This document shows positions 1 through 41,710 of a stretch of DNA of 42,407 nucleotides, in pieces. Position numbers and translations under genes: made by a program. The stretch is from a virus (Duplodnaviria > Heunggongvirae > Uroviricota > Caudoviricetes). The notes under the pieces were generated by a model that worked only from the letters and a program-made list of their open reading frames with translations, ran no database searches and was not told where the DNA came from. Position 1 is the stretch's first letter; each line of letters opens with the position of its first letter. Location: IMG/VR virus record IMGVR_UViG_2565956608_000007, positions 1 through 42,407 of that record; one strand, written 5' to 3'.

Positions 1-1506
<1,506 letters not shown>

Positions 1507-4624: not shown

Positions 4625-5017
4625 TCATACGAAGCGCCTCACAGCCAAAGAAGCGACCACCCGACCGTGAATTTTGATTTCTTTCTGTTCATCAGCATTA
4701 AGGGTGAAAGTTTCGTAATGATGGTTATCAGAGATGATTTTTAATGAGCCATCAGCTAATGGCTCAATTCTCTTAATGAAAAGGCATGGGCGACCAAAAG
4801 CATCCATTGTGTAAACATAAATTCCAGAGGTAAGCGCACTTCCACCGCAATCAACGAAAGCCACAACCTCACATGGTTCGATGGTCGGCTGCATTGAATC
4901 ACCTTCCATCCGGCAGCTTTGAACGCGGTTGCCAAAGTCATTAATGTTGTCAGATCCGAACAGCATCTGAGGCGTTTTAATTGGCTTATTAATTGCGACG
5001 GAATTTTGCATTCTCAT
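4625..5017 (-). CDS. stand-alone S24 (LexA/UmuD-like) peptidase-domain protein
   Basis: 130-aa ORF with GDSMQP serine motif and downstream FIKRI lysine motif typical of S24 peptidases; no HTH domain; GAGG ribosome-binding site. Confidence 0.7.
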   Translation of the reverse strand: MRMQNSVAINKPIKTPQMLFGSDNINDFGNRVQSCRMEGDSMQPTIEPCEVVAFVDCGGSALTSGIYVYTMDAFGRPCLFIKRIEPLADGSLKIISDNHHYETFTLNADEQKEIKIHGRVVASLAVRRFV

Positions 5018-5077
5018 TTCCTCAGGGTGAGTTTGGCCCCACCAAGAAAGGTGTTAATTGAATAATGTTAATTAATT

Positions 5078-5509
5078 TTAAATCTTGTCGGCTTGCTTGC
5101 AGATGGTTTCTTGCAAGTCGTCTAATTTTTCATAAACGATAGTTAGCGTACCGATAGCCGACAATTCCGGAGGCATACAATCCATAGCGTTGGATAAAGC
5201 CATTCTGCAATTGCCAATATCCGCAGACCATGAATTAAGTTGATTGGAAGTTATAATGCTTGTTGGCTCTGTAAAATCACCACACTGCTCGTTTCCTGAA
5301 ATGAGCCACAGAACATCAGAATGAAGAATGTTAGCCAATTGGATTAACTGGTCAGCAAACGGAACAGTTTTTTCCGTTTCCCAGTTGTTAATGGTTTCGG
5401 TTGTTAAACCAAGATGATCAGCCAAAAAATCCTGAGACAGTCGAAGCGAAGATCTTTGATTTAATATTCTTTTGCCGATGGTTTTGGCTACGGTGATTTG
5501 AGTATTCAT
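5078..5509 (-). CDS. HTH (XRE-family) DNA-binding protein, first gene of leftward early operon
   Basis: 143-aa ORF with N-terminal helix-turn-helix (LRLSQDFLADHLGLTTETINNWE); preceded by operator-like palindromes. Confidence 0.7.
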   Translation of the reverse strand: MNTQITVAKTIGKRILNQRSSLRLSQDFLADHLGLTTETINNWETEKTVPFADQLIQLANILHSDVLWLISGNEQCGDFTEPTSIITSNQLNSWSADIGNCRMALSNAMDCMPPELSAIGTLTIVYEKLDDLQETICKQADKI

Positions 5510-5552
5510 TTCATTGGCTCCGTTGTTTGCCGATGAATGAACTTTAAGTCAT

Positions 5553-5572
5553 GCAATAACTTATTGCAATAA
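5553..5572. promoter_or_regulatory. OL-like operator: overlapping palindromes GCAATAAcTTATTGC and TTATTGCAATAA
   Basis: Perfect 12-bp palindrome at 5561-5572 and 15-bp near-palindrome at 5553-5567 upstream of the leftward operon; the TTATTGCA motif recurs once in the cI-cro intergenic region (6457-6464). Confidence 0.5.
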
Positions 5573-5669
5573 CAAAACTTATTTTTCTTTTGCGATTTAG
5601 TTTAATGCATTGATTTTTTTGATTAAATTTTGTTATTAAACTGCATACTTACAGCTACAGACAAAGAAA

Positions 5670-5689
5670 AAGCCGCTTAAAAGCGGCTT
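5670..5689 (-). terminator. Rho-independent terminator downstream of the repressor gene
   Basis: AAGCCGCTT/AAGCGGCTT inverted repeat, followed on the minus strand by a T-rich tract. Confidence 0.5.
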
Positions 5690-5710
5690 CAAAAGGTGGG
5701 GTGTTGAAGG

Positions 5711-6409
5711 TTAGAGCCTATTGTAATTGATTGATTCATGCATTATGGCTTTACCCATCACGTAAAGGTCATCTTGGTTTTCTTCCGTGATATACCATTT
5801 CTCATATGCCGGATTATCCGATAAGACTGCCAGCCTGTTTCCCTGCATCTGGAGACGTTTTAGGTGAAATGTTTTACCAAAAACAAAAACATACACACCA
5901 TCCGTTAGAAAGTGTCGGACGGAAATGTCTACGAAGACACGATCACCGGAATTGAACGTGCTGGCCATGCTGTCGCCATTGACGGTCATTACTTTTACGA
6001 CATCTTCACTACGATTCCCGAAGAGGGATTTTGCATGTTGAGTCGTGAACTCAATAGCGTGTAAAACCTCCACATATTCTGAAAGCATGAACGTGCCAGG
6101 CCCTGCACTCACTGAAAGGTCAAGAACCTCGACCCTGAATATGCCAGCGTTATCCTTTACCTCCCTTTCGGGCATGGTCTCTATCACATAGCCCTGTCTA
6201 TGAGGCACATGATTTTTTCCAGTTGATAGCCATTCAGGGCTCACACCCAGCGCATTAGCAATCTCAACCAACTTACGTGTTGTGTTGGTTTTGCCTGCAA
6301 CAAGACGCCAGATAGCTGGTTGCGAAACCCCAACTTTCATCGCTAATTCTGCCTGTGTAAGGCCTGCGTCAACCATCGCTTTTTGAAGACGATCTGAGAA
6401 TGTGTTCAT
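5711..6409 (-). CDS. cI: CI-like prophage repressor (HTH + S24 autopeptidase domain)
   Basis: N-terminal HTH (LTQAELAMKVGVSQPAIWRL) and C-terminal S24 motifs (GDSMAS ... FHLKRL); divergent from Cro-like gene. Confidence 0.85.
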   Translation of the reverse strand: MNTFSDRLQKAMVDAGLTQAELAMKVGVSQPAIWRLVAGKTNTTRKLVEIANALGVSPEWLSTGKNHVPHRQGYVIETMPEREVKDNAGIFRVEVLDLSVSAGPGTFMLSEYVEVLHAIEFTTQHAKSLFGNRSEDVVKVMTVNGDSMASTFNSGDRVFVDISVRHFLTDGVYVFVFGKTFHLKRLQMQGNRLAVLSDNPAYEKWYITEENQDDLYVMGKAIMHESINYNRL

Positions 6410-14405: not shown

Positions 14406-14556
14406 GGTTGTAGACACGGCTTGCGACTGGGTTAAACCCATCTACGGAACGGATCACGACTGGGATGTGCTGGACCGCCAGACGAAGAAAGACATCCTGG
14501 CGCATAACAAAACGTGGCAGGTGAACTGCCAAAAGGAGAAAGTCGATTTGAAGTAG
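14326..14556 (+). CDS. o-spanin (Rz1-like lipoprotein)
   Basis: Signal peptide with lipobox-like IVSC; begins inside the i-spanin gene in another frame and extends past it. Confidence 0.6.
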   Translation: MYSRPLTICLAMMLIVSCAQTGPVKVEVVDTACDWVKPIYGTDHDWDVLDRQTKKDILAHNKTWQVNCQKEKVDLK

Positions 14557-15234
14557 TAAAGCGGATAGACCGCCGCCGAAAGGTAATGCAGCAGTCATGA
14601 TGCTGCCCCGAGTCGCGTAATGGCGAGCAGGTATAGCAGACAGTTGTGAGGGTAAGTAAGGGAACATGCTCCGGTAAAGCAGCACGAACGCCATACGCGC
14701 ACCGGTTATCAGCGGCTAATAAGCGACAGAGACTCAAGGGCATGAGCGTGGCCACTTCGGGTAGTGGCAGCCATTACAAAGCTCACCTGCTGGTGGGCTT
14801 GATAATGGTTATAAACATAAGCAGTTTAATCAATCATATGATCATCTTACGCAATTGGATTTCTTCCTGCCCGTTGAGTTGGGCGTACTCCACTAATTGC
14901 TTAATAAGCGATTCTTTGTCATTAGACATCAAGGAAGAAACGTAAAGACCAGTTGTCCATTCAAAAACGCTCACTAAGGATAAGGGCGATTTTCTTGAGT
15001 ACTGATAATTTATTGAGAAGTTATTGCAGATTCTTTTCTTTTCCATGGGGTAAATTTGTACTTAATGCAAATTATCGGCATTTATAATGCTGTAATGGTT
15101 TGAGATAAATGAGTACTTCACTTTGGGTAAAAGATACTTTAGCACCGCTAAAAATAGTAGGATTAATCTTAGATTGTTGTTGTTTTTAGCAAAATATGAA
15201 TAATAAATTCAACTAAACACAACGATAACAACCG

Positions 15235-15684
15235 ATGAAAATTCAATCTATTACAATCGCTTTTCTGGTGGCGATATCGTCACCCTCATACTCAGCCTTT
15301 CAGGAAAGGGAATACAATACCTGGTATCAGAAAGATGCAGTGCTTTACGACATTACGCAGACCTCAGAGGGATTGCCTGTCATGATAAGCATCTCTCAAC
15401 CCGGGAGGGGAGCAGCAAATATGCTGGTGTCCTATATGTCCGATGGCAGTTGTGGAGATAAGAAGGAGTTGCTTAATGTGAATGGGAAGGATGTTCCTGC
15501 AACTTACAGGTGTGTATCGGTCGGGGCAAACAGGATTGAGCACTTTGCAGTTAATGATGCCGAAAAGGTCAATGAGATGGTTAACCACCTCAAGTCAGAT
15601 TTCACTTTGCTGCTTCAGAACGATATCAAAGTCTGGGCTGCGAACATAAAGACGCCGAAGTATGGCATAGCACCAAGATTTTAA
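15235..15684 (+). CDS. secreted protein of unknown function (cargo)
   Basis: 149-aa ORF with N-terminal signal peptide MKIQSITIAFLVAISSPSYSA; sits in a visibly AT-rich segment and is followed by a terminator. Confidence 0.6.
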   Translation: MKIQSITIAFLVAISSPSYSAFQEREYNTWYQKDAVLYDITQTSEGLPVMISISQPGRGAANMLVSYMSDGSCGDKKELLNVNGKDVPATYRCVSVGANRIEHFAVNDAEKVNEMVNHLKSDFTLLLQNDIKVWAANIKTPKYGIAPRF

Positions 15685-15698
15685 ATCGCTATATCTAA

Positions 15699-15718
15699 CC
15701 GCCTGAAGGCGGTTTTTT
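15699..15718 (+). terminator. Rho-independent terminator
   Basis: CCGCC-TGAA-GGCGG followed by TTTTTT. Confidence 0.6.
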
Positions 15719-15736
15719 AATGGCAATAACATTGGT

Positions 15737-15782
15737 TATCCCCTGAAAGGGATAAAGCACTGAATATCCCTTTCAGGGGATA
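15737..15782. repeat. perfect 18-bp inverted repeat (TATCCCCTGAAAGGGATA ... TATCCCTTTCAGGGGATA) with 10-bp spacer
   Basis: Second arm is the exact reverse complement of the first; each arm is itself a near-palindrome. Confidence 0.7.
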
Positions 15783-15787
15783 AATCG

Positions 15788-15811
15788 GCCTCGCAATAGC
15801 GGGGCTTTTTT
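15788..15811 (+). terminator. Rho-independent terminator
   Basis: GCCTCGC-AATA-GCGGGGC followed by TTTTTT. Confidence 0.55.
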
Positions 15812-30114: not shown

Positions 30115-30302
30115 CCCTCAACAGCCTGCCTGACGGGCTGTCTTATCTCCTTGACCCGGTTGACGCCGGGTTAATCCCTTATTACGCGCTGAAGGATGGA
30201 TCTGTCGATCTGTGCGATATCGCGCTGATGAATGACCACCTGGCCGTTAAAGCTGACAACCAGCGCCGTATAGAGAAATGGAGAGAGGATAATGAACGCT
30301 GA
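29662..30302 (+). CDS. tail assembly chaperone, putative -1 frameshift-extended isoform
   Basis: The -1 frame is open from 30003 to the stop at 30300-30302; slippery A_AAT_TTT / T_TTT_TTG at 30060-30069; extension ends 11 nt into the tape measure gene. Confidence 0.4.
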
Positions 30303-32301
30303 GACTATTAAAGATTTCCTCGTCTCGCTCGGTTTCGATATCGACGAAGCAGGCGCGGAAAAGTTCGATTCAGTCCTCGCCGGTACGACCGCAAACGCTA
30401 TCAAAATGGGGCTGGCCGTCGAAGGCGCCGCGCTTACCGTGGTGGCCTTTACGGCTAAGATCGCCTCCGGTCTGGATAATCTCTACTGGGCGTCACAGCG
30501 CACCGGCGCGACGGTTCAGGGGATTCAGTCTATTGGCTATGCGGTTTCGCAGGTGGGCGGCAGCGTTGACGCGGCGCGCACCTCTCTGGAAAGCCTCTCC
30601 CGGTTTGTTCGTAACAATCCCGGCGCGGAAGGCTTCCTGAATCGCCTGGGCGTACAGACCCGTGACGCCAGCGGCAACATGCGCGACATGGCCGCTATCT
30701 TTACGGGCGTCGGCCAGAAGCTCAGCAGCATGCCGTATTACCGGGCTAACCAGTATGCGCAGATGCTGGGCATTGACGAAAATACCCTCATGGCGATGCG
30801 CCGGGGTGTGGGCGGTTTCTCCGGGCAGTACAGCGCAATGGCGAAAGCTATCGGCTTCAATGCTGACGAGGCGGCCAGAAGCTCAAACAAATTCATGACC
30901 TCCCTGCGCGAGTTCGGCGCGATGGCAGGCATGGCCCGTGACAAAATCGGTTCTAATCTTGCTGGTGGTCTGGCGGGTTCGCTGGACACGCTGCGCCGCC
31001 ACATCCTAGATAACTTCCCGCGCATCGAGCAGACCCTGACGAAAGCCATAAAGGGCATTCTGGCGCTCGGGGACATTATAGGGCGGCTGTTCTTCCGGCT
31101 TATTGAGGGGACATCCAGCCTTATCACCTGGTGGCAATCGCTGGATAAGCAAACGCGGGAGCTAATCTCGTTGTTCGGCGCGCTGACGATTGCGCTGCGC
31201 ATTCTGAACAGTACGTTCTGGATGTCGCCGATTGGCCTCATTACCGCGCTGGCGGCGGGGATTGCCCTTCTGTGGGAGGACTATCAGACCTGGAAGGAAG
31301 GCGGGGACAGCCTGATTGACTGGGGCAAGTGGAAGCCGGAAGTCGACGCCGCGCTGAAGATGGTTCGTGACCTTAAAACGACCGTTAACGAACTGGCGAA
31401 AGCGCTGGCGAAACTGCTCAACATTGACCCTAAATCATGGTCCCTGAAGTGGGATTTCAGCAACTTCATCGACCAGATGGGCGAGTTCAGCAAAATGCTG
31501 AATATGATTGCCGACCTGCTCAACGCCATTAAAGATGGCCGCTGGGCTGATGCCGCCAGCATTGGCAAACAGATGCTTAATCAGGGTAGCGAAAATCCGT
31601 CAGCGATGCCGATGGTAACAGACAGCGCTAACAGTGCCGCTGACTGGATTCAAGATAAGTTTGGTGTCGATCCTCGTAATGTTGGTCGGTGGATAAAAGG
31701 GAGATTTGGCGATGATGAGCCTGAACAGCTCGGCCAGTCAGTCAAGCGGCCACAGCCAACTAAAGCAGGCTCTGAACTGCTGGGATGGATGCAACCGATG
31801 CTTACCAACCTGGAACAGCTCTACCGACTTCCGGAAGGTTTGCTGCGCAGTGTGGCCATCACGGAATCGGGCGGTAATCAGTTCGCCGTTTCAGGCGCTG
31901 GCGCTAAAGGTCTGTTTCAGTTTATGGATGGTACAGCGCGTGACATGGGGCTGCGCGGGAATGATGTTTTCGACCCGGAGAAGGCCGCGCAGGCAGCCGC
32001 AAAGTATCTTTCACAGCTGCTGCAGGCGAACGGCGGTGACCTGAGCAAAGCGCTGGCCTCTTATAACTGGGGGATCGGGAACGTGCAGAAGCACGGGATG
32101 GCCCTTATGCCTCAGGAAACCCGAAACTACATTCCGAAAGTGTTAAGCAATATGCCTGCGCCCGGGGCTCAGGTACAGCAACAGAACACCTATCACATCT
32201 ACGGTGGTGGTGATCCGCGTTCTGTTGGTACCGAGGTCGAGCGCCGCCAGCAGTCGGCAAACGCTCAGGTTATGCGCGGCAATCAAACGAAGGTGGGCTA
32301 A
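30292..32301 (+). CDS. tail tape measure protein with C-terminal lytic transglycosylase (SLT) domain
   Basis: 669-aa ORF; SLT motifs ITESGGNQFAVSGAGAKGLFQFM ... YNWG. Confidence 0.8.
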   Translation: MNAETIKDFLVSLGFDIDEAGAEKFDSVLAGTTANAIKMGLAVEGAALTVVAFTAKIASGLDNLYWASQRTGATVQGIQSIGYAVSQVGGSVDAARTSLESLSRFVRNNPGAEGFLNRLGVQTRDASGNMRDMAAIFTGVGQKLSSMPYYRANQYAQMLGIDENTLMAMRRGVGGFSGQYSAMAKAIGFNADEAARSSNKFMTSLREFGAMAGMARDKIGSNLAGGLAGSLDTLRRHILDNFPRIEQTLTKAIKGILALGDIIGRLFFRLIEGTSSLITWWQSLDKQTRELISLFGALTIALRILNSTFWMSPIGLITALAAGIALLWEDYQTWKEGGDSLIDWGKWKPEVDAALKMVRDLKTTVNELAKALAKLLNIDPKSWSLKWDFSNFIDQMGEFSKMLNMIADLLNAIKDGRWADAASIGKQMLNQGSENPSAMPMVTDSANSAADWIQDKFGVDPRNVGRWIKGRFGDDEPEQLGQSVKRPQPTKAGSELLGWMQPMLTNLEQLYRLPEGLLRSVAITESGGNQFAVSGAGAKGLFQFMDGTARDMGLRGNDVFDPEKAAQAAAKYLSQLLQANGGDLSKALASYNWGIGNVQKHGMALMPQETRNYIPKVLSNMPAPGAQVQQQNTYHIYGGGDPRSVGTEVERRQQSANAQVMRGNQTKVG

Positions 32302-33192: not shown

Positions 33193-34254
33193 ATGTCACA
33201 GAACTGGATGAGACATTTCGAGTTGCAGCTCCTGGACGAGAACGGGCAGGGGATTGAACTCAGCGATTTTAAAGTAACCTTTACGATCGACTGGTTCAAC
33301 ATCAGCAGCGCGTCACGGGTGGGGACGTTCAAAATTTACAACCTGTCTGCAGATACCTCCAACCGTATAACCGGCAAAGAGTTTTCGAAAGTTCGGCTGA
33401 TTGCCGGTTACGACGGTATCGCGCCGGAGGTATCGGCAAGCGACGTCGGGACCGTTCGCGAAGTCGACGCGGCGGACGTGGGACAGAGTGATGGCCGCAA
33501 CTATGGACTTATTTACAGCGGTGAAATTCGCTACTCGGTCACCGGTAAAGACAGTCCTATTGATTCCTACGTCCTGATTCAGGCAGCCGATACGGATCTG
33601 GCTTTTGCCACCAGCATAACCTCGCAGACGCTGGCGGCCGGTTACACAGTCGCAGACGTGAACCGCGCGCTGATGAAAGACTTCGAGGCCAAAGGCGCGA
33701 CCGAAGGCCTTACCCCTGAAATGCCTGCTACCGTATTCCCCCGTGGCCGGGTGCTGTTCGGCATGACACGGCACCTTATGGATAACGTGGCCGGACAATG
33801 TGGCGCAACATGGCAATTCGTGGATGGCCAGCGGCAGATGGTGGCGAATAACGAATATGTTCACGATGCGATTGTGCTCAACAGCGCCACCGGGCTTATC
33901 GGCATGCCGCAGCAGACCATCGGCAACGGCGTAAACGTCCGCGCGCTGATTAACCCGAACATCCGGGTTAACGGGCTCATTCAGCTGGATCAGGCTTCCG
34001 TGTATCGTACCGCGCTGTCGAACAACGATATCGCTATGGCTGGTGGGCAGATCACCGACCAGAACACGGACGGAAATATCACGCTAAGCGGCACCACGGC
34101 GCAACCTGCCAGTATCGCAACGGATGGCGTTTATATTGTGCGCGGGATTATGTACACTGGCGATACAAGGGGCCAGGCGTGGTACATGGATATGATGTGC
34201 GAAGCGCGTGGCGCGGCGGATCTCCGCACTCAGGACTCGCTTAATCGGGGGTAA
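33193..34254 (+). CDS. putative baseplate hub / tail protein
   Basis: 353-aa ORF before the spike gene, in the position of the Mu-type hub gene. Confidence 0.45.
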   Translation: MSQNWMRHFELQLLDENGQGIELSDFKVTFTIDWFNISSASRVGTFKIYNLSADTSNRITGKEFSKVRLIAGYDGIAPEVSASDVGTVREVDAADVGQSDGRNYGLIYSGEIRYSVTGKDSPIDSYVLIQAADTDLAFATSITSQTLAAGYTVADVNRALMKDFEAKGATEGLTPEMPATVFPRGRVLFGMTRHLMDNVAGQCGATWQFVDGQRQMVANNEYVHDAIVLNSATGLIGMPQQTIGNGVNVRALINPNIRVNGLIQLDQASVYRTALSNNDIAMAGGQITDQNTDGNITLSGTTAQPASIATDGVYIVRGIMYTGDTRGQAWYMDMMCEARGAADLRTQDSLNRG

Positions 34255-34256
34255 AT

Positions 34257-34598
34257 TTGAAAGCCTTAGCCATTTTAATTGTTGCCTTTATGTCATTTGG
34301 GGCATCAGCAAGCGGGTACACCGCTTATTGTGGGCCTTACACCATCACTGCAAGGTTGGGTGAAATGGACATAATTAACGGTGAACGCGTCACATCGCAG
34401 AAAATTACAAATCTTGGTGCTGATGGCATTAAGATTGATATGGGGCTTATGCCTGCTAAAGATGGCAACAATTATGGCTTTGAATACATTCGCCGTCCGG
34501 GTACCGAAACGCGATTCCTGAATGTCCAACTGCTGCAGAATAGCATGGACGCGCCGAAAGTTATCGGCTCTTTCCCATGCAAAAAAGTTTCTGATTAA
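34257..34598 (+). CDS. secreted protein of unknown function (moron inside tail cluster)
   Basis: Signal peptide MKALAILIVAFMSFGASA; visibly AT-rich relative to flanking tail genes. Confidence 0.55.
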   Translation: MKALAILIVAFMSFGASASGYTAYCGPYTITARLGEMDIINGERVTSQKITNLGADGIKIDMGLMPAKDGNNYGFEYIRRPGTETRFLNVQLLQNSMDAPKVIGSFPCKKVSD

Positions 34599-34613
34599 AG
34601 TAATTAATGGACT

Positions 34614-35036
34614 TTGTTTATGGCGGTCAGCAGGTCAAAGAAAATAGTTTTATTAGTTGTCATTGTTGTAGGTTATTTAATTGGAAACCATAAAAACAAT
34701 GAAACTGACAAAGTGTCTGGTAATACCGAAGCCCCTGAAAAGGCTGCAGCGCAACAATCAAGTAATACTCCTACTTTGTCAGAGGATGTTCTTTTAAAGA
34801 ATGAAGTGATATTTACCTGTAAGGATATCGCCCGATCTTCTTTATCGTTGCCGGACACATTCGAAACCGAACAGACTGAAAGCGGGATCGACGAGAAAAA
34901 TGGAAAGCAAGTTTATTACTTTACCCTGCATTTTTCTGGAATGAACGCCTTCAATAGTCGAATCACTCATACAATAGAGTGTTACGGGACGGTAGGAGAC
35001 AAAAACCGAACTGTTACCTATAAAACATTCAACTAA
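34614..35036 (+). CDS. membrane-anchored protein of unknown function (moron inside tail cluster)
   Basis: N-terminal transmembrane helix (KKIVLLVVIVVGYLIG); AT-rich; followed by its own terminator. Confidence 0.55.
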   Translation: MFMAVSRSKKIVLLVVIVVGYLIGNHKNNETDKVSGNTEAPEKAAAQQSSNTPTLSEDVLLKNEVIFTCKDIARSSLSLPDTFETEQTESGIDEKNGKQVYYFTLHFSGMNAFNSRITHTIECYGTVGDKNRTVTYKTFN

Positions 35037-35057
35037 CCCGCCACCCGGCGGGTTTTT
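35037..35057 (+). terminator. Rho-independent terminator after the moron pair
   Basis: CCCGCC-ACCC-GGCGGG followed by TTTTT. Confidence 0.6.
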
Positions 35058-35076
35058 GCTTTCTGGAGCCTACCAA

Positions 35077-35829
35077 ATGGCAGTATCTGACCAGACCCGC
35101 AGCGGCGACCTTGCCGAAACATTCAAATCTGAGCGGGACACGACAAAAAACCAGATCCGCGTCGCTTTGCCTGGTATCGTTCAGTCATTCGACCCTGACG
35201 CGGTGACGGCGGTTGTGCAGCCTGCTATCCGCTCTGTTGAAACCGATAACGACGGCAACCGCGTTACCAAAAATTACCCGCTGCTGGTGGATGTGCCGGT
35301 GGTATTTCCGCGCGGCGGCGGCTGCACGTTAACTTTCCCGGTAAAAGCCGGCGATGAATGCCTGGTGATTTTTGCCGATCGCTGCATCGATTTCTGGTGG
35401 CAGAACGGCGGGGTGCAGGAGCCTGTCGACGACCGGGTGCATGATTTATCGGATGCGTTCTGTATCGTCGGGCCCCAGTCACAGGCGCAGAAAATCAGCG
35501 GAATCAGCACGGGGGCCGCTCAACTGCGCAGCGACGATGGAAGCACGTTCTTTGAGCTCGACCCCACTACGCAGAAAATTAAAATCGTAGCGCCTGGCGG
35601 TCTGGATGTAGTTACTCCACTGGCCGACTTCTCGGCGAAAGTTACAATTCACGGGCTCCTGTCCTGGCTGGGTGGAATGGTGGGTTCAGTTGCTTCTGGC
35701 GTTGCATCCAAAATCACTGGCGCTGTCGAGTTTATCGGTACCGTTAAAGCTAACGGCAAGTCAATTGATGATACGCACACTCACGGCGGCGTACAGCACG
35801 GCACCAGCAACACAGACGGGGTGAACTGA
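35077..35829 (+). CDS. baseplate central spike protein (Mu gp45-like)
   Basis: Motif PLLVDVPVVFPRGGGCTLTFPVKAGDECLVIFADRCID typical of baseplate spike N-domains; ATG at 35077. Confidence 0.65.
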   Translation: MAVSDQTRSGDLAETFKSERDTTKNQIRVALPGIVQSFDPDAVTAVVQPAIRSVETDNDGNRVTKNYPLLVDVPVVFPRGGGCTLTFPVKAGDECLVIFADRCIDFWWQNGGVQEPVDDRVHDLSDAFCIVGPQSQAQKISGISTGAAQLRSDDGSTFFELDPTTQKIKIVAPGGLDVVTPLADFSAKVTIHGLLSWLGGMVGSVASGVASKITGAVEFIGTVKANGKSIDDTHTHGGVQHGTSNTDGVN

Positions 35830-39624: not shown

Positions 39625-40668
39625 TCATATTAAAGCTTTTCGTAAAAGCGTCTTCCCAATTAAAACACCTTTTCGCTCTACAGTTTTATGCGCAAAATAA
39701 CAAACTATAAATAACAATGTTAATATTTGAATGTTGCTGTTGATATATGGGATTTGTAATTTTGAAACCACTAGTGACAAAGTATACCAAATCCAGTTAT
39801 GGAACAAGTATACAGCATAAGTCATTTCAGACAGTAAATTGCATGCTTTGGATTCAATGAATTTATCTCTAAACAACCACGAAACAAGGAAAATAATAAC
39901 TCCTGTAAATGCGTAGTTGTACTGGCCCCAGAATGGATTTATTTTCTCAATGAGAGATAAATGCAGATAGAACATAATTACGATGGATGCTAAAGCAATA
40001 ACCCGATTAACTAACTTATGCTCTACAAGATACACTACTACACCGATAAACAAAAATGGCGTATACAATGTAAAGTAAGCATTATGAAAATCATTAGCCA
40101 CAGGGAAAGGGTTAATGCTGGATATAAAAAACGATACAACAAGAAGGAGAACAGTCAAAACGTTTCCTTTGTTTATTATACCAGCTTTTTTAACTAATCC
40201 CATAAACACGTAGAACATCATTTCTATTCTTAGTGTCCATTCTACGCCAGCTAATGAAAGTGGAGTGTTAAAGAAATCACCTATGAGCAAAAGTCTTGGG
40301 ATTAGTATAGTTAGAGGTGGAACACCAGCACCGTTATAATACTGAACTAACATTTCTGCAATAACTGCAAAAATGTATAAAGGATATATTCTAAAAATCC
40401 TTTTTAAATAAAATTCAAAAGTTGCTTCTTTTTGTAAAACGTGGGTTATGATATATCCTGAAACAAGAAAGAAGATTACAACCCCCATAGCCCCACCGAA
40501 ACTGGCATCGGCAAGTAGACCGTAAAATGATCTAAGTGTTACGTGGTTACTTGGATCGCTCGCCCACGAAGCTAAATCTTTGTTGAACTTGTGGCCTAAC
40601 ACCACAAGAGAGAATGCAAAGATACGCATGTAATCTAAAAAAAGAATTCTACGATTGTTCATTTTCAT
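39625..40668 (-). CDS. acyltransferase family 3 membrane protein (OafA/Oac-like O-antigen acetyltransferase)
   Basis: About 347-aa polytopic membrane protein with acyltransferase-3-type N-terminus (RILFLDYMRIFAFSLVVLGH); markedly AT-rich; located between tail genes and attR. Confidence 0.75.
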   Translation of the reverse strand: MKMNNRRILFLDYMRIFAFSLVVLGHKFNKDLASWASDPSNHVTLRSFYGLLADASFGGAMGVVIFFLVSGYIITHVLQKEATFEFYLKRIFRIYPLYIFAVIAEMLVQYYNGAGVPPLTILIPRLLLIGDFFNTPLSLAGVEWTLRIEMMFYVFMGLVKKAGIINKGNVLTVLLLVVSFFISSINPFPVANDFHNAYFTLYTPFLFIGVVVYLVEHKLVNRVIALASIVIMFYLHLSLIEKINPFWGQYNYAFTGVIIFLVSWLFRDKFIESKACNLLSEMTYAVYLFHNWIWYTLSLVVSKLQIPYINSNIQILTLLFIVCYFAHKTVERKGVLIGKTLLRKALI

Positions 40669-40809
40669 CAAAATCTTATTGTTGATGAGGCTATTTTATA
40701 GCATGAACAGCGAAATTCATAACAGGTTGGTGGTTGGGGTGGTGAAAAATCTCATCATGGAAGAAAAATCTGGCTGTCAGCGTTTATTAATGCTGGCAGC
40801 CAGCACATT

Positions 40810-41347: not shown

Positions 41348-41710
41348 TGGTGGAGCTGGCGGGAGTTGAACCCGCGTCCGAAATTCCTACATCCTCGGTA
41401 CTACATGCTTAGTCAGTCTTTACATTCGCTTGCCAGCTGCGGACGGACACGCCACTAACAAACTAGCCTGATTAAGTTTTAACGCTTCAACCCCAGGCAG
41501 GGCTTCCACGCGATCTCTTTTGGGTTTGACCTCTCTTGATCCCCGTCCTAAGAGCGGAGGCTAGGGAGAGAGGGCTCTAAGCAGGTTATTAAGCTGCTAA
41601 AGCGTAGTTTTCGTCGTTTGCGACTATTTTTTGCGGCTTTTTACGAGGCCAACCGCCCCTCGGCATGCACCTTGGGTTTCGCAAATCCCGTCGAATCCAG
41701 AATCAGCCCC
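41348..41710 (-). ncRNA. ssrA: tmRNA (transfer-messenger RNA, SsrA)
   Basis: Minus-strand sequence begins GGGGCTGATTCTGGATTCGACGGG and ends ...GGTTCAACTCCCGCCAGCTCCACCA; 363 nt; directly downstream of smpB. Confidence 0.95.
41355..41384. repeat. attR core inside ssrA (GCTGGCGGGAGTTGAACCCGCGTCCGAAAT)
   Basis: 29/30 identical to 1663-1692. Confidence 0.65.

Follow-up and report, generated by a model that had tools for sequence, protein, structure and literature searches.

What are two small genes with export signals doing in the middle of a baseplate gene cluster? The question is raised by IMGVR_UViG_2565956608_000007, a 42,407-nucleotide (nt) stretch of DNA (the window, to which all coordinates below refer) that represents a ~39 kb prophage in an Escherichia coli chromosome, and in which two open reading frames (ORFs), ORF1 and ORF2, lie between the genes for the baseplate hub and the spike. 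A preliminary description of this DNA had treated the pair as one AT-rich moron with a dedicated terminator. We confirmed that both ORFs carry export signals and that a strong terminator follows them, but comparison with related phages revealed that the region consists of two evolutionary units rather than a single insert: ORF1 is a clade-specific gene fixed behind the hub gene in a clade of Enterobacterales phages, and not a universal part of the baseplate, while ORF2 is a swappable occupant of the slot next to it. The explanation that we favor overall, with modest confidence, is that a conserved exported protein (ORF1) stands beside a hypervariable cargo slot with exclusion-type functions. 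The argument rests on the following features.

33193..34254, + strand: baseplate hub gene, the left conserved neighbor (phrog_196 baseplate hub, E 7.7e-87; weak PF22759 match)
34257..34598, + strand: ORF1, 113 amino acids (aa), TTG start (phrog_3443, E 1.1e-45)
34599..35034, no strand: variable cargo slot, from the ORF1 stop codon to the terminator hairpin, occupied by ORF2 in the window
34620..35036, + strand: ORF2, 138 aa, ATG start, predicted N-terminal transmembrane anchor
35035..35064, + strand: conserved intrinsic terminator, the right boundary of the slot (hairpin 35035-35054 plus T-rich tail)
35065..35829, + strand: spike gene, the right conserved neighbor, including a GGAG ribosome-binding site at 35065-35068 and the ATG at 35077 (PF18352, E 7e-44)

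The hub-spike interval in related phages

We compared 113 loci with an ORF1 homologue; some come from complete E. coli genomes and from a set with one genome for each GTDB species, the others from IMG/VR contigs and phage records. The hub gene was directly upstream of ORF1 wherever the flank was present, and the start of the spike gene lay 61-2107 nt downstream of the ORF1 stop codon. The intervening slot varied across loci from E. coli, other Enterobacterales, and IMG/VR, and held 41 mutually unrelated sequence classes, all AT-rich (G+C (GC) content 0.35-0.46), plus an empty class. The latter comprises two complete phage contigs of 40.0 and 42.5 kb (L045 and L048), in which ORF1 is present without cargo, followed by 21 nt, the terminator, and the spike gene. 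ORF2-type cargo was found in 9 of the 113 loci. One ORF1 allele could be observed with many cargoes, and one cargo with different ORF1 alleles.

The terminator proved to be part of the phage backbone, and not, as the preliminary description had it, an element belonging to the insert. In the window, its hairpin (35035-35054) has 8 pairs, 6 of them G-C, followed by TTTTTGCTTTCT, with a local fold of -16.9 kcal/mol, and the terminator overlaps the ORF2 stop codon. A GC-rich hairpin followed by at least five T was present just upstream of the spike ribosome-binding site in 112/113 loci (median -13.6 kcal/mol; the exception is Yersinia phage YP3), whatever the cargo and also at empty sites, with compensatory stems such as CCCGCC/GGCGGG, CCTGC/GCAGG, GCCCAC/GTGGGC, and GGCCGC/GTGGCC. 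Given its presence with any cargo or none, the terminator is a fixed right edge of the slot and was not brought in by ORF2. The GGAG-N8-ATG start of the spike gene is likewise kept behind the terminator in relatives, and we place the start codon of this gene at ATG 35077 rather than at TTG 35056, the position given previously.

These observations bear directly on the possibility that ORF1 and ORF2 arrived in the baseplate cluster together, as one moron of two genes equipped with its own terminator. Both ORFs are AT-rich and have export signals, they are 21 nt apart with a terminator after them, and nothing lies between hub and spike in Providencia phage PSTCR3, which would make ORF1 itself an ancient addition. 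The low GC content that had been claimed for the region was also borne out: the 780-nt block has a GC content of 0.410, which is 7.2 standard deviations below windows of equal size from the remainder of the structural module (0.549 ± 0.019; minimum 0.497; z = -7.2), and values for the individual genes are 0.447 for ORF1, 0.385 for ORF2, and 0.562 each for hub and spike. A moron-type deviation in base composition is thus present in both ORFs, as it is in the cargo of other loci, and ORF1 had a lower GC content than the hub gene in 101 of 103 loci (median difference, 0.083). However, ORF1 accompanies 41 different cargoes or none, ORF2 is confined to nine loci, ORF1 alleles and cargo classes reassort freely, and the terminator is found even at empty sites. 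The single-unit reading is already contradicted by these data, and we consider it extremely improbable.

A moron, in the definition of Juhala and Hendrix, is extra DNA in one phage that is absent from close relatives (PMC3594210). ORF2 fits this description, as it is AT-rich and missing in most close relatives, which have alternative cargoes or none at the same site, while ORF1, as part of one insert, does not, as it is kept in close relatives and present without cargo. The preliminary description had set the moron against conserved structural tail components that lack any shift in composition; ORF1 is indeed conserved in close relatives, but the compositional shift is genuine, and a structural role for ORF1 is very improbable.

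As the 113 loci were gathered through searches with ORF1, the presence of ORF1 in all of them is circular as evidence for its conservation. Independent evidence comes from three sources, the first being the two complete contigs in which ORF1 stands without cargo. Second, phage records in which the hub is at least 50% identical carry ORF1 almost without exception; only Hafnia phage yong1 and Klebsiella phage ST405-OXA48phi1.2 lack it. Across all phage records with a hub homologue, ORF1 was found in 19/134, and each of these 19 has a hub at least 50% identical. Third, in 5,426 complete E. coli genomes, ORF1-like DNA was present in at least 276 of the 315 that have a hub-spike region. Farther away, the hub gene of PSTCR3 overlaps the spike gene directly, and ORF1 was not found in phages of Burkholderia, Acinetobacter, and Rhizobium that share this set of baseplate genes. 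ORF1 is therefore extra compared to distant relatives such as PSTCR3, and nearly always present within its own clade.

ORF1 and its homologues

In the window, ORF1 starts 2 nt past the hub stop codon, and the spacing was 2-3 nt in 85 of the 109 loci in which it was measured, suggesting translational coupling. Residues 1-18 (nt 34257-34310) form a predicted signal peptide, with K2, a hydrophobic core, and A16-S17-A18 before S19, and the mature protein of ~95 aa is predicted to be all-beta, with invariant cysteines at C25 and C108. Among 64 distinct full-length homologues, the basic N-terminus and hydrophobic core were found in all, and the AXA-like site and the two-cysteine pair in 63 each; the signal peptide varies in sequence and retains its properties, and C25 and C108 are invariant even in members down to 28% identity. 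Conserved motifs include INGExxxSQK, DGNxYG, and FLNVQLLQ.

The homology searches that had been suggested for the region returned, for ORF1, a match to phrog_3443, a family of unknown function, in which residues 2-113 align with profile positions 2-115 of 115 (E 1.1e-45). A word-indexed protein search recovered 387 homologues, all "hypothetical" and all from Enterobacterales, and a HMMER search over 1.84 billion representative proteins recovered 33 clusters only. Long multi-stretch matches to P0130, P0149, P0154, P0157, and P0159 were set aside as probably spurious; of these, P0154 and P0159 were inspected and proved to be repeat proteins, in which motifs like 'SDGNFYGTT' recur and the DGNxYG of ORF1 is shared, and not homologues. 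A reading of ORF1 as a lipoprotein or spanin was also rejected, as there is no conserved lipobox and the first cysteine is 6-7 residues past the AXA site.

Two further homologues should be mentioned. In Salmonella phage SEN34, the deposited start of SEN34_20 (L001:4071-4412) is an internal ATG that yields 77 aa and loses the signal peptide; the full 113-aa ORF at this position is 97-98% identical to ORF1 of the window. The SEN34 genome paper does not discuss the genes of the hub-spike interval. In P0150, a lipoprotein-like protein of 292 aa, an unrelated N-terminal domain of ~190 residues is fused to a C-terminal ORF1-like domain, and the ORF1 fold has therefore been reused as a module.

ORF1 is under purifying selection, with a median ratio of nonsynonymous to synonymous substitution (dN/dS) of 0.105 versus 0.052 for the hub gene. 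Among phages with ~95% identical hubs, the identity of ORF1 nonetheless spans 51% to 100%. The divergence of ORF1 is uncoupled from that of the hub, and its alleles reassort independently of neighboring genes.

Proteins unrelated to ORF1 but with similar export signals were found at or near the same position in several relatives. In Hafnia phage yong1 (L115:3571-4032), the place of ORF1 is taken by a non-homologous small exported protein, VNKRTVFLILSLFVPIAVMA…, and in a Rouxiella prophage (L120:about 4670-4920) by a cysteine-rich exported protein of 83 residues. Burkholderia phage Magia (L117:3457-3828, - strand) encodes gp21, a non-homologous exported protein, after the hub gene, while in PSTCR3 (L116:1963-2436) a small signal-peptide protein is encoded between the plug and hub genes. 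To judge from these predicted proteins, phages with this family of baseplate repeatedly encode an exported protein next to their tail-tip genes.

We weighed these data against the possibility that ORF1 is a late structural or assembly protein of the tail or baseplate, in which the hydrophobic N-terminus is not cleaved and serves as a membrane-insertion or assembly element. Its fixed place in the baseplate module, 2-3 nt past the hub stop codon and without a promoter of its own, would be consistent with such a role, as would the purifying selection. On the other hand, ORF1 has a canonical signal peptide that ends in an AXA-type site, and its two invariant cysteines are typical of periplasmic proteins; the gene is missing from phages that share its set of baseplate genes, PSTCR3 and those of Burkholderia, Acinetobacter, and Rhizobium among them; non-homologous exported proteins replace it in yong1 and the Rouxiella prophage; its alleles can differ by 30-50% between phages with 95% identical hubs; and its GC content is consistently below that of the hub gene. 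We regard a structural role as quite improbable. Rather, the signal peptide, the conserved cysteine pair, and the replacement by analogous exported proteins point to a periplasmic role over one in the virion, and ORF1 very likely acts in the periplasm.

ORF2 and the other cargoes of the slot

The ORF2 reading frame extends mechanically from TTG 34614 (34614-35036), but ATG 34620, 21 nt after ORF1, is the start used in homologues and in the RefSeq (PGAP) record for a near-identical locus of E. coli. The N-terminus, MAVSRSKK, is followed by a 16-residue hydrophobic helix (Kyte-Doolittle mean 2.3), and the predicted transmembrane anchor spans approximately residues 7-23 (nt 34638-34688), followed by a disordered linker. 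The C-terminal domain was modeled with a predicted local distance difference test score (pLDDT) of about 90 as one helix on a four-stranded antiparallel sheet, and C67 and C121, which are conserved in the family, are both in this alpha+beta domain. The predicted topology has the N-terminus in the cytoplasm and the C-terminal domain in the periplasm. An envelope location is thus predicted for both proteins, from the signal peptide and cysteines of ORF1 and from the basic N-terminus, single transmembrane helix, and cysteines of ORF2.

The ORF2 family is small, with 6 clusters in a database of 5.8 billion proteins and ORF2 DNA in 1 of the 5,426 complete E. coli genomes. Homologues at 43-64% identity have longer linkers and were found only in the same slot of related prophages, and the family seems, from this distribution, to be confined to the SEN34-like phage group and to the hub-spike slot. 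Comparison of the model with the viral structures of BFVD gave only weak matches (TM-score 0.5 or below), all to lipoproteins and membrane proteins of phages that are uncharacterised.

The cargoes that occupy the slot in other loci include PD-Lambda-1 (E 1.4e-82), four YafO-toxin modules, T5orf172, DUF2335 and DUF4282 membrane proteins, and a P22-type antirepressor, and PADLOC matches among them include PDC-S57 and HEPN_IX. In a Photorhabdus prophage (L033), the slot holds PF14373 Imm_superinfect, a T4-Imm-like protein. When its versions are combined, the commonest occupant is a two-gene cassette encoding a ~250-aa protein and then a ~130-aa HEPN-like protein (L007:2056-3212, L010:2027-3176, L053, L056, L061, L073, L074, L099, and L106). 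The larger protein has weak TPR-like matches among the cargo set, the smaller has conserved 'SRAYY…YH' and 'R…ADY' motifs and weak HEPN matches, and most versions have no PADLOC match; on this basis, the cassette is a candidate for an uncharacterised anti-phage system. Many other cargo classes have AT-rich leaders of 100-330 nt or lie on the opposite strand, and therefore need promoters of their own.

We also observed a cargo family of ~170 aa (L003:3397-3906, L018:6270-6767, L059:6342-6851) with no PADLOC match and a conserved 'YIRNNLFHGGKY' motif that looks like the Rx4H motif of HEPN proteins. In the slot of L080, about 256-418 nt past the ORF1 stop codon, there is a second, truncated ORF1 3' end (MGLMPARDGNNYGF…GSFPCKKVSD). 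This copy suggests a recombination scar, with cargo exchanged through recombination in the conserved 3' part of ORF1.

Judged by its contents, the slot is a prophage defence/moron hotspot. The preliminary description had suggested superinfection exclusion or host interaction as the function of the two ORFs. Given that the sister cargoes include PD-Lambda-1, YafO, HEPN-like genes, and PF14373 Imm_superinfect, this suggestion is strengthened, and by analogy such a function is plausible. No description of the hub-spike junction as a site of this kind was found in the literature searched.

Possible functions and known systems

The prophage that carries this locus is a SEN34-like (Brunovirus-type) temperate myophage. 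Its left flank (window 1-978) is E. coli glaH, at 99.8% identity, and the transfer-messenger RNA (tmRNA) gene, ssrA, is near the right end of the window (41348-41710); the prophage is therefore integrated in the E. coli chromosome next to ssrA. Its closest cultured relatives are Salmonella phage SEN34 (genus Brunovirus), Yersinia phage YP3, four Escherichia vB_EcoM phages, and Klebsiella phage Mulock. The tail-tip and baseplate genes are in the order tape measure, Dit-like, Pam3-gp18-like plug, hub, ORF1, ORF2, and spike, followed by genes for a sheath-initiator-like wedge protein, baseplate J, a DUF2612 protein, and the tail fibre. Among these proteins, the tape measure protein bears a predicted cell-wall hydrolase domain, which is a candidate target of ORF1 in the periplasm.

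30292..32301, + strand: tape measure protein gene (homologues annotated as SLT-domain proteins)
31813-32103 (residues 508-604), C-terminal part of the tape measure protein: SLT lytic transglycosylase domain (Pfam PF01464, E 7.3e-24)

Elsewhere in the window, an acyltransferase-family gene (39625-40671, - strand; 347 aa; PF01757 Acyl_transf_3, E 1.5e-25) sits in a very AT-rich island (GC about 0.33-0.38) directly after the tail-fibre assembly gene. Located at the prophage end, it looks like an O-antigen-modifying lysogenic-conversion moron. Additional AT-rich islands with a GC content equal to or below that of the hub-spike block were noted at 881-1891, 4671-6241, and 14501-15811.

The explanation that we favor can be elaborated as follows. 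The small exported-protein gene ORF1 is fixed directly after the hub gene, and the slot next to it takes up swappable cargo. ORF2, at the inner membrane or in the periplasm, would block the injecting tail of incoming phages, as HK97 gp15 or Sie proteins do, and ORF1 would act from the periplasm on the tail tips of incoming phages, where inhibition of the tape measure SLT domain is one possible mode of action. The terminator would insulate the baseplate genes, halting transcripts started in the cargo before they reach the spike gene, and, as an intrinsic terminator within a late operon, it would require read-through or antitermination in lytic growth. Our confidence differs between these parts. 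By analogy with known exclusion systems and with its sister cargoes, ORF2 could well be an accessory anti-phage gene, most likely a superinfection-exclusion factor acting at the inner membrane or in the periplasm on the injecting tail of incoming phages, although we put this just short of probable. For ORF1, action on incoming tail tips is the most likely role but more tentative, and the specific version, in which ORF1 both binds the tape measure SLT transglycosylase domain and inhibits it, much as T4 Spackle acts on the gp5 lysozyme, is doubtful.

Structural modeling offered some indication of how ORF1 might work. The AlphaFold2 model is all-beta, and its fold matches in the PDB (scores in parentheses) include Brucella PhiA (6.9), Salmonella PliC (6.7), E. 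coli MliC (6.2), Neisseria ACP (5.7), and the type VI secretion system (T6SS) immunity protein BtaiB (7.0). Based on this model, ORF1 may work like an inhibitor of the MliC/PliC type, although we do not assign it to that family.

Several results weigh against the favored explanation, or against particular parts of it. The ORF1 model is of low confidence (pLDDT 61.7) and derives from a shallow alignment, and avidins as well as designed or generic 8-stranded barrels match it as well as the lysozyme inhibitors do. A profile of 18 diverse ORF1 homologues had no sequence match in the PDB at E values up to 10, and Pfam searches with 18 diverse members of the family, also at E up to 10, returned only noise and no match to PF09864, a family that E. 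coli MliC matched at 6.6e-18. Homology of ORF1 to MliC is not claimed, as hhalign against E. coli MliC gave a probability of 23% and aligned the signal peptide only. When covariation of ORF1 was assessed with the SLT domain, Dit, plug, hub, spike, W, and J, no preferred partner was apparent, with Spearman coefficients of pairwise identities between 0.47 and 0.64, except for the C-terminus of the spike at 0.19 (23 non-redundant loci). Searches of Pfam, NCBIfam, and PADLOC were empty for both ORF1 and ORF2, and accordingly gave no homology to a known exclusion protein for either. Finally, a consensus scan found no sigma-70 promoter upstream of ORF1 or ORF2, and a relaxed scan only weak candidates; given this and the spacings of 2 nt and 21 nt, ORF1 and ORF2 may be expressed only late, along with the tail genes, and not from the repressed prophage.

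The last of these results also speaks for another possibility, that ORF1 and ORF2 are accessories of the late lytic cycle, protecting the wall from the SLT activity of progeny tails (lysis from without) or influencing the timing of lysis or release. Both genes belong to the late tail operon and follow the hub gene at short distance, and T4 Spackle and Imm are likewise made during infection and not from a prophage (PMC7677548). However, a strong terminator after the cargo in 112/113 loci fits the insulation of independently transcribed cargo, and the leaders and orientation of many other cargoes imply promoters of their own. While we consider this possibility distinctly unlikely, it overlaps with the favored explanation in mechanism, and timing alone differs.

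It is also conceivable that ORF1, ORF2, or both serve in lysogenic conversion and alter the bacterial envelope for reasons that have nothing to do with phages, for example, ORF1 as a PliC/MliC-like shield against animal lysozymes, or a factor in serum resistance or adhesion like lambda Bor and Lom. Lysozyme inhibitors from enteric and other pathogens are among the best fold matches of the ORF1 model, the hosts are Enterobacterales associated with the gut and with insects, factors of this kind are often the products of morons (PMC3594210), and the same prophage carries the PF01757 acyltransferase gene, itself perhaps an O-antigen-modifying moron. Yet the model is of low confidence, ORF1 lacks a Pfam match to MliC, and its alignment with E. 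coli MliC is limited to the signal peptide. Moreover, both families are restricted to one phage clade and one position next to the tail-tip genes, a restriction that a gene of general benefit to the host would not need, and the neighboring cargoes of the slot are mostly anti-phage. We judge this alternative to be rather unlikely.

A bolder form of the favored explanation, which combines several of its parts and which we regard as unlikely though worth stating, is that ORF1 is the first of a new family of periplasmic beta-barrel inhibitors directed against the SLT domain, or some other component of the tail tip, in incoming SEN34-like phages, with fast-diverging alleles that set the specificity of exclusion. 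The exported proteins of the Hafnia, Rouxiella, and Burkholderia phages would then be analogues, and the slot an undescribed defence hotspot that includes an uncharacterised anti-phage two-gene cassette. If true, the ORF1 family would be an independently evolved, temperate-phage counterpart of T4 Spackle. Few periplasmic exclusion factors of temperate phages have a known mechanism, and ORF1 is a concrete candidate for one.

Spackle is a 75-residue, disulfide-bonded periplasmic inhibitor of the gp5 tail lysozyme of T4 (PMC7677548). ORF1 resembles it as a signal-peptide protein with a mature form of roughly 75-95 residues and one likely disulfide, and the tail of its phage also bears a cell-wall hydrolase, in the form of the SLT domain of the tape measure protein. 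The two differ in fold, with Spackle an alpha-helical bundle and ORF1 predicted to be all-beta, and in genetic setting, as Spackle is the product of an early gene of a virulent phage and ORF1 is encoded among the late tail genes of a temperate one. From MliC/PliC (PF09864), Brucella PhiA, and Neisseria ACP, ORF1 differs in having no PF09864 match at E up to 10.

For ORF2, the closest parallel is gp15 of HK97, encoded by a tail-operon moron, an inner-membrane exclusion protein that blocks DNA entry (PMC3594210). Both are membrane proteins encoded by small genes, and ORF2, AT-rich and located in a tail operon, is likewise followed by a terminator and absent from close relatives. The two are unrelated in sequence, ORF2 having no Pfam match at all, including to the YebO family of gp15, and ORF2 differs further in its predicted 85-residue folded periplasmic domain and in that no promoter was found for it. 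Superinfection exclusion by gp15 was reportedly described by Cumby et al. in 2012. With T4 Imm, the connection is through the slot: the PF14373 protein at L033 implies that membrane-located exclusion proteins are carried there, but ORF2 itself has no PF14373 match and consists of one transmembrane segment plus a folded domain.

The kind of element described here, a moron or prophage hotspot, is known, while this site and both protein families are uncharacterised. Defence hotspots have been described in P2-like prophages and P4-like satellites (Rousset et al. 2022; PMC9122126). As in those hotspots, a short variable region at a fixed position between core genes takes up many AT-rich cargoes, including anti-phage systems; the differences are that this one belongs to a SEN34-like lineage and sits at the hub-spike junction, bounded by a conserved exported-protein gene and a terminator. 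About 6% of complete E. coli genomes, and many other Enterobacterales, carry SEN34-like prophages, whose hub-spike junction is a precisely bounded place in which to seek anti-phage genes, with the ORF1 3' end and the conserved terminator as anchors. With known anti-phage genes beside many uncharacterised ones, the slot could be mined as the P2/P4 hotspots were. These findings leave the general understanding of phages unchanged, and extend the known themes of morons, prophage defence hotspots, and envelope-level exclusion to a new lineage and site.

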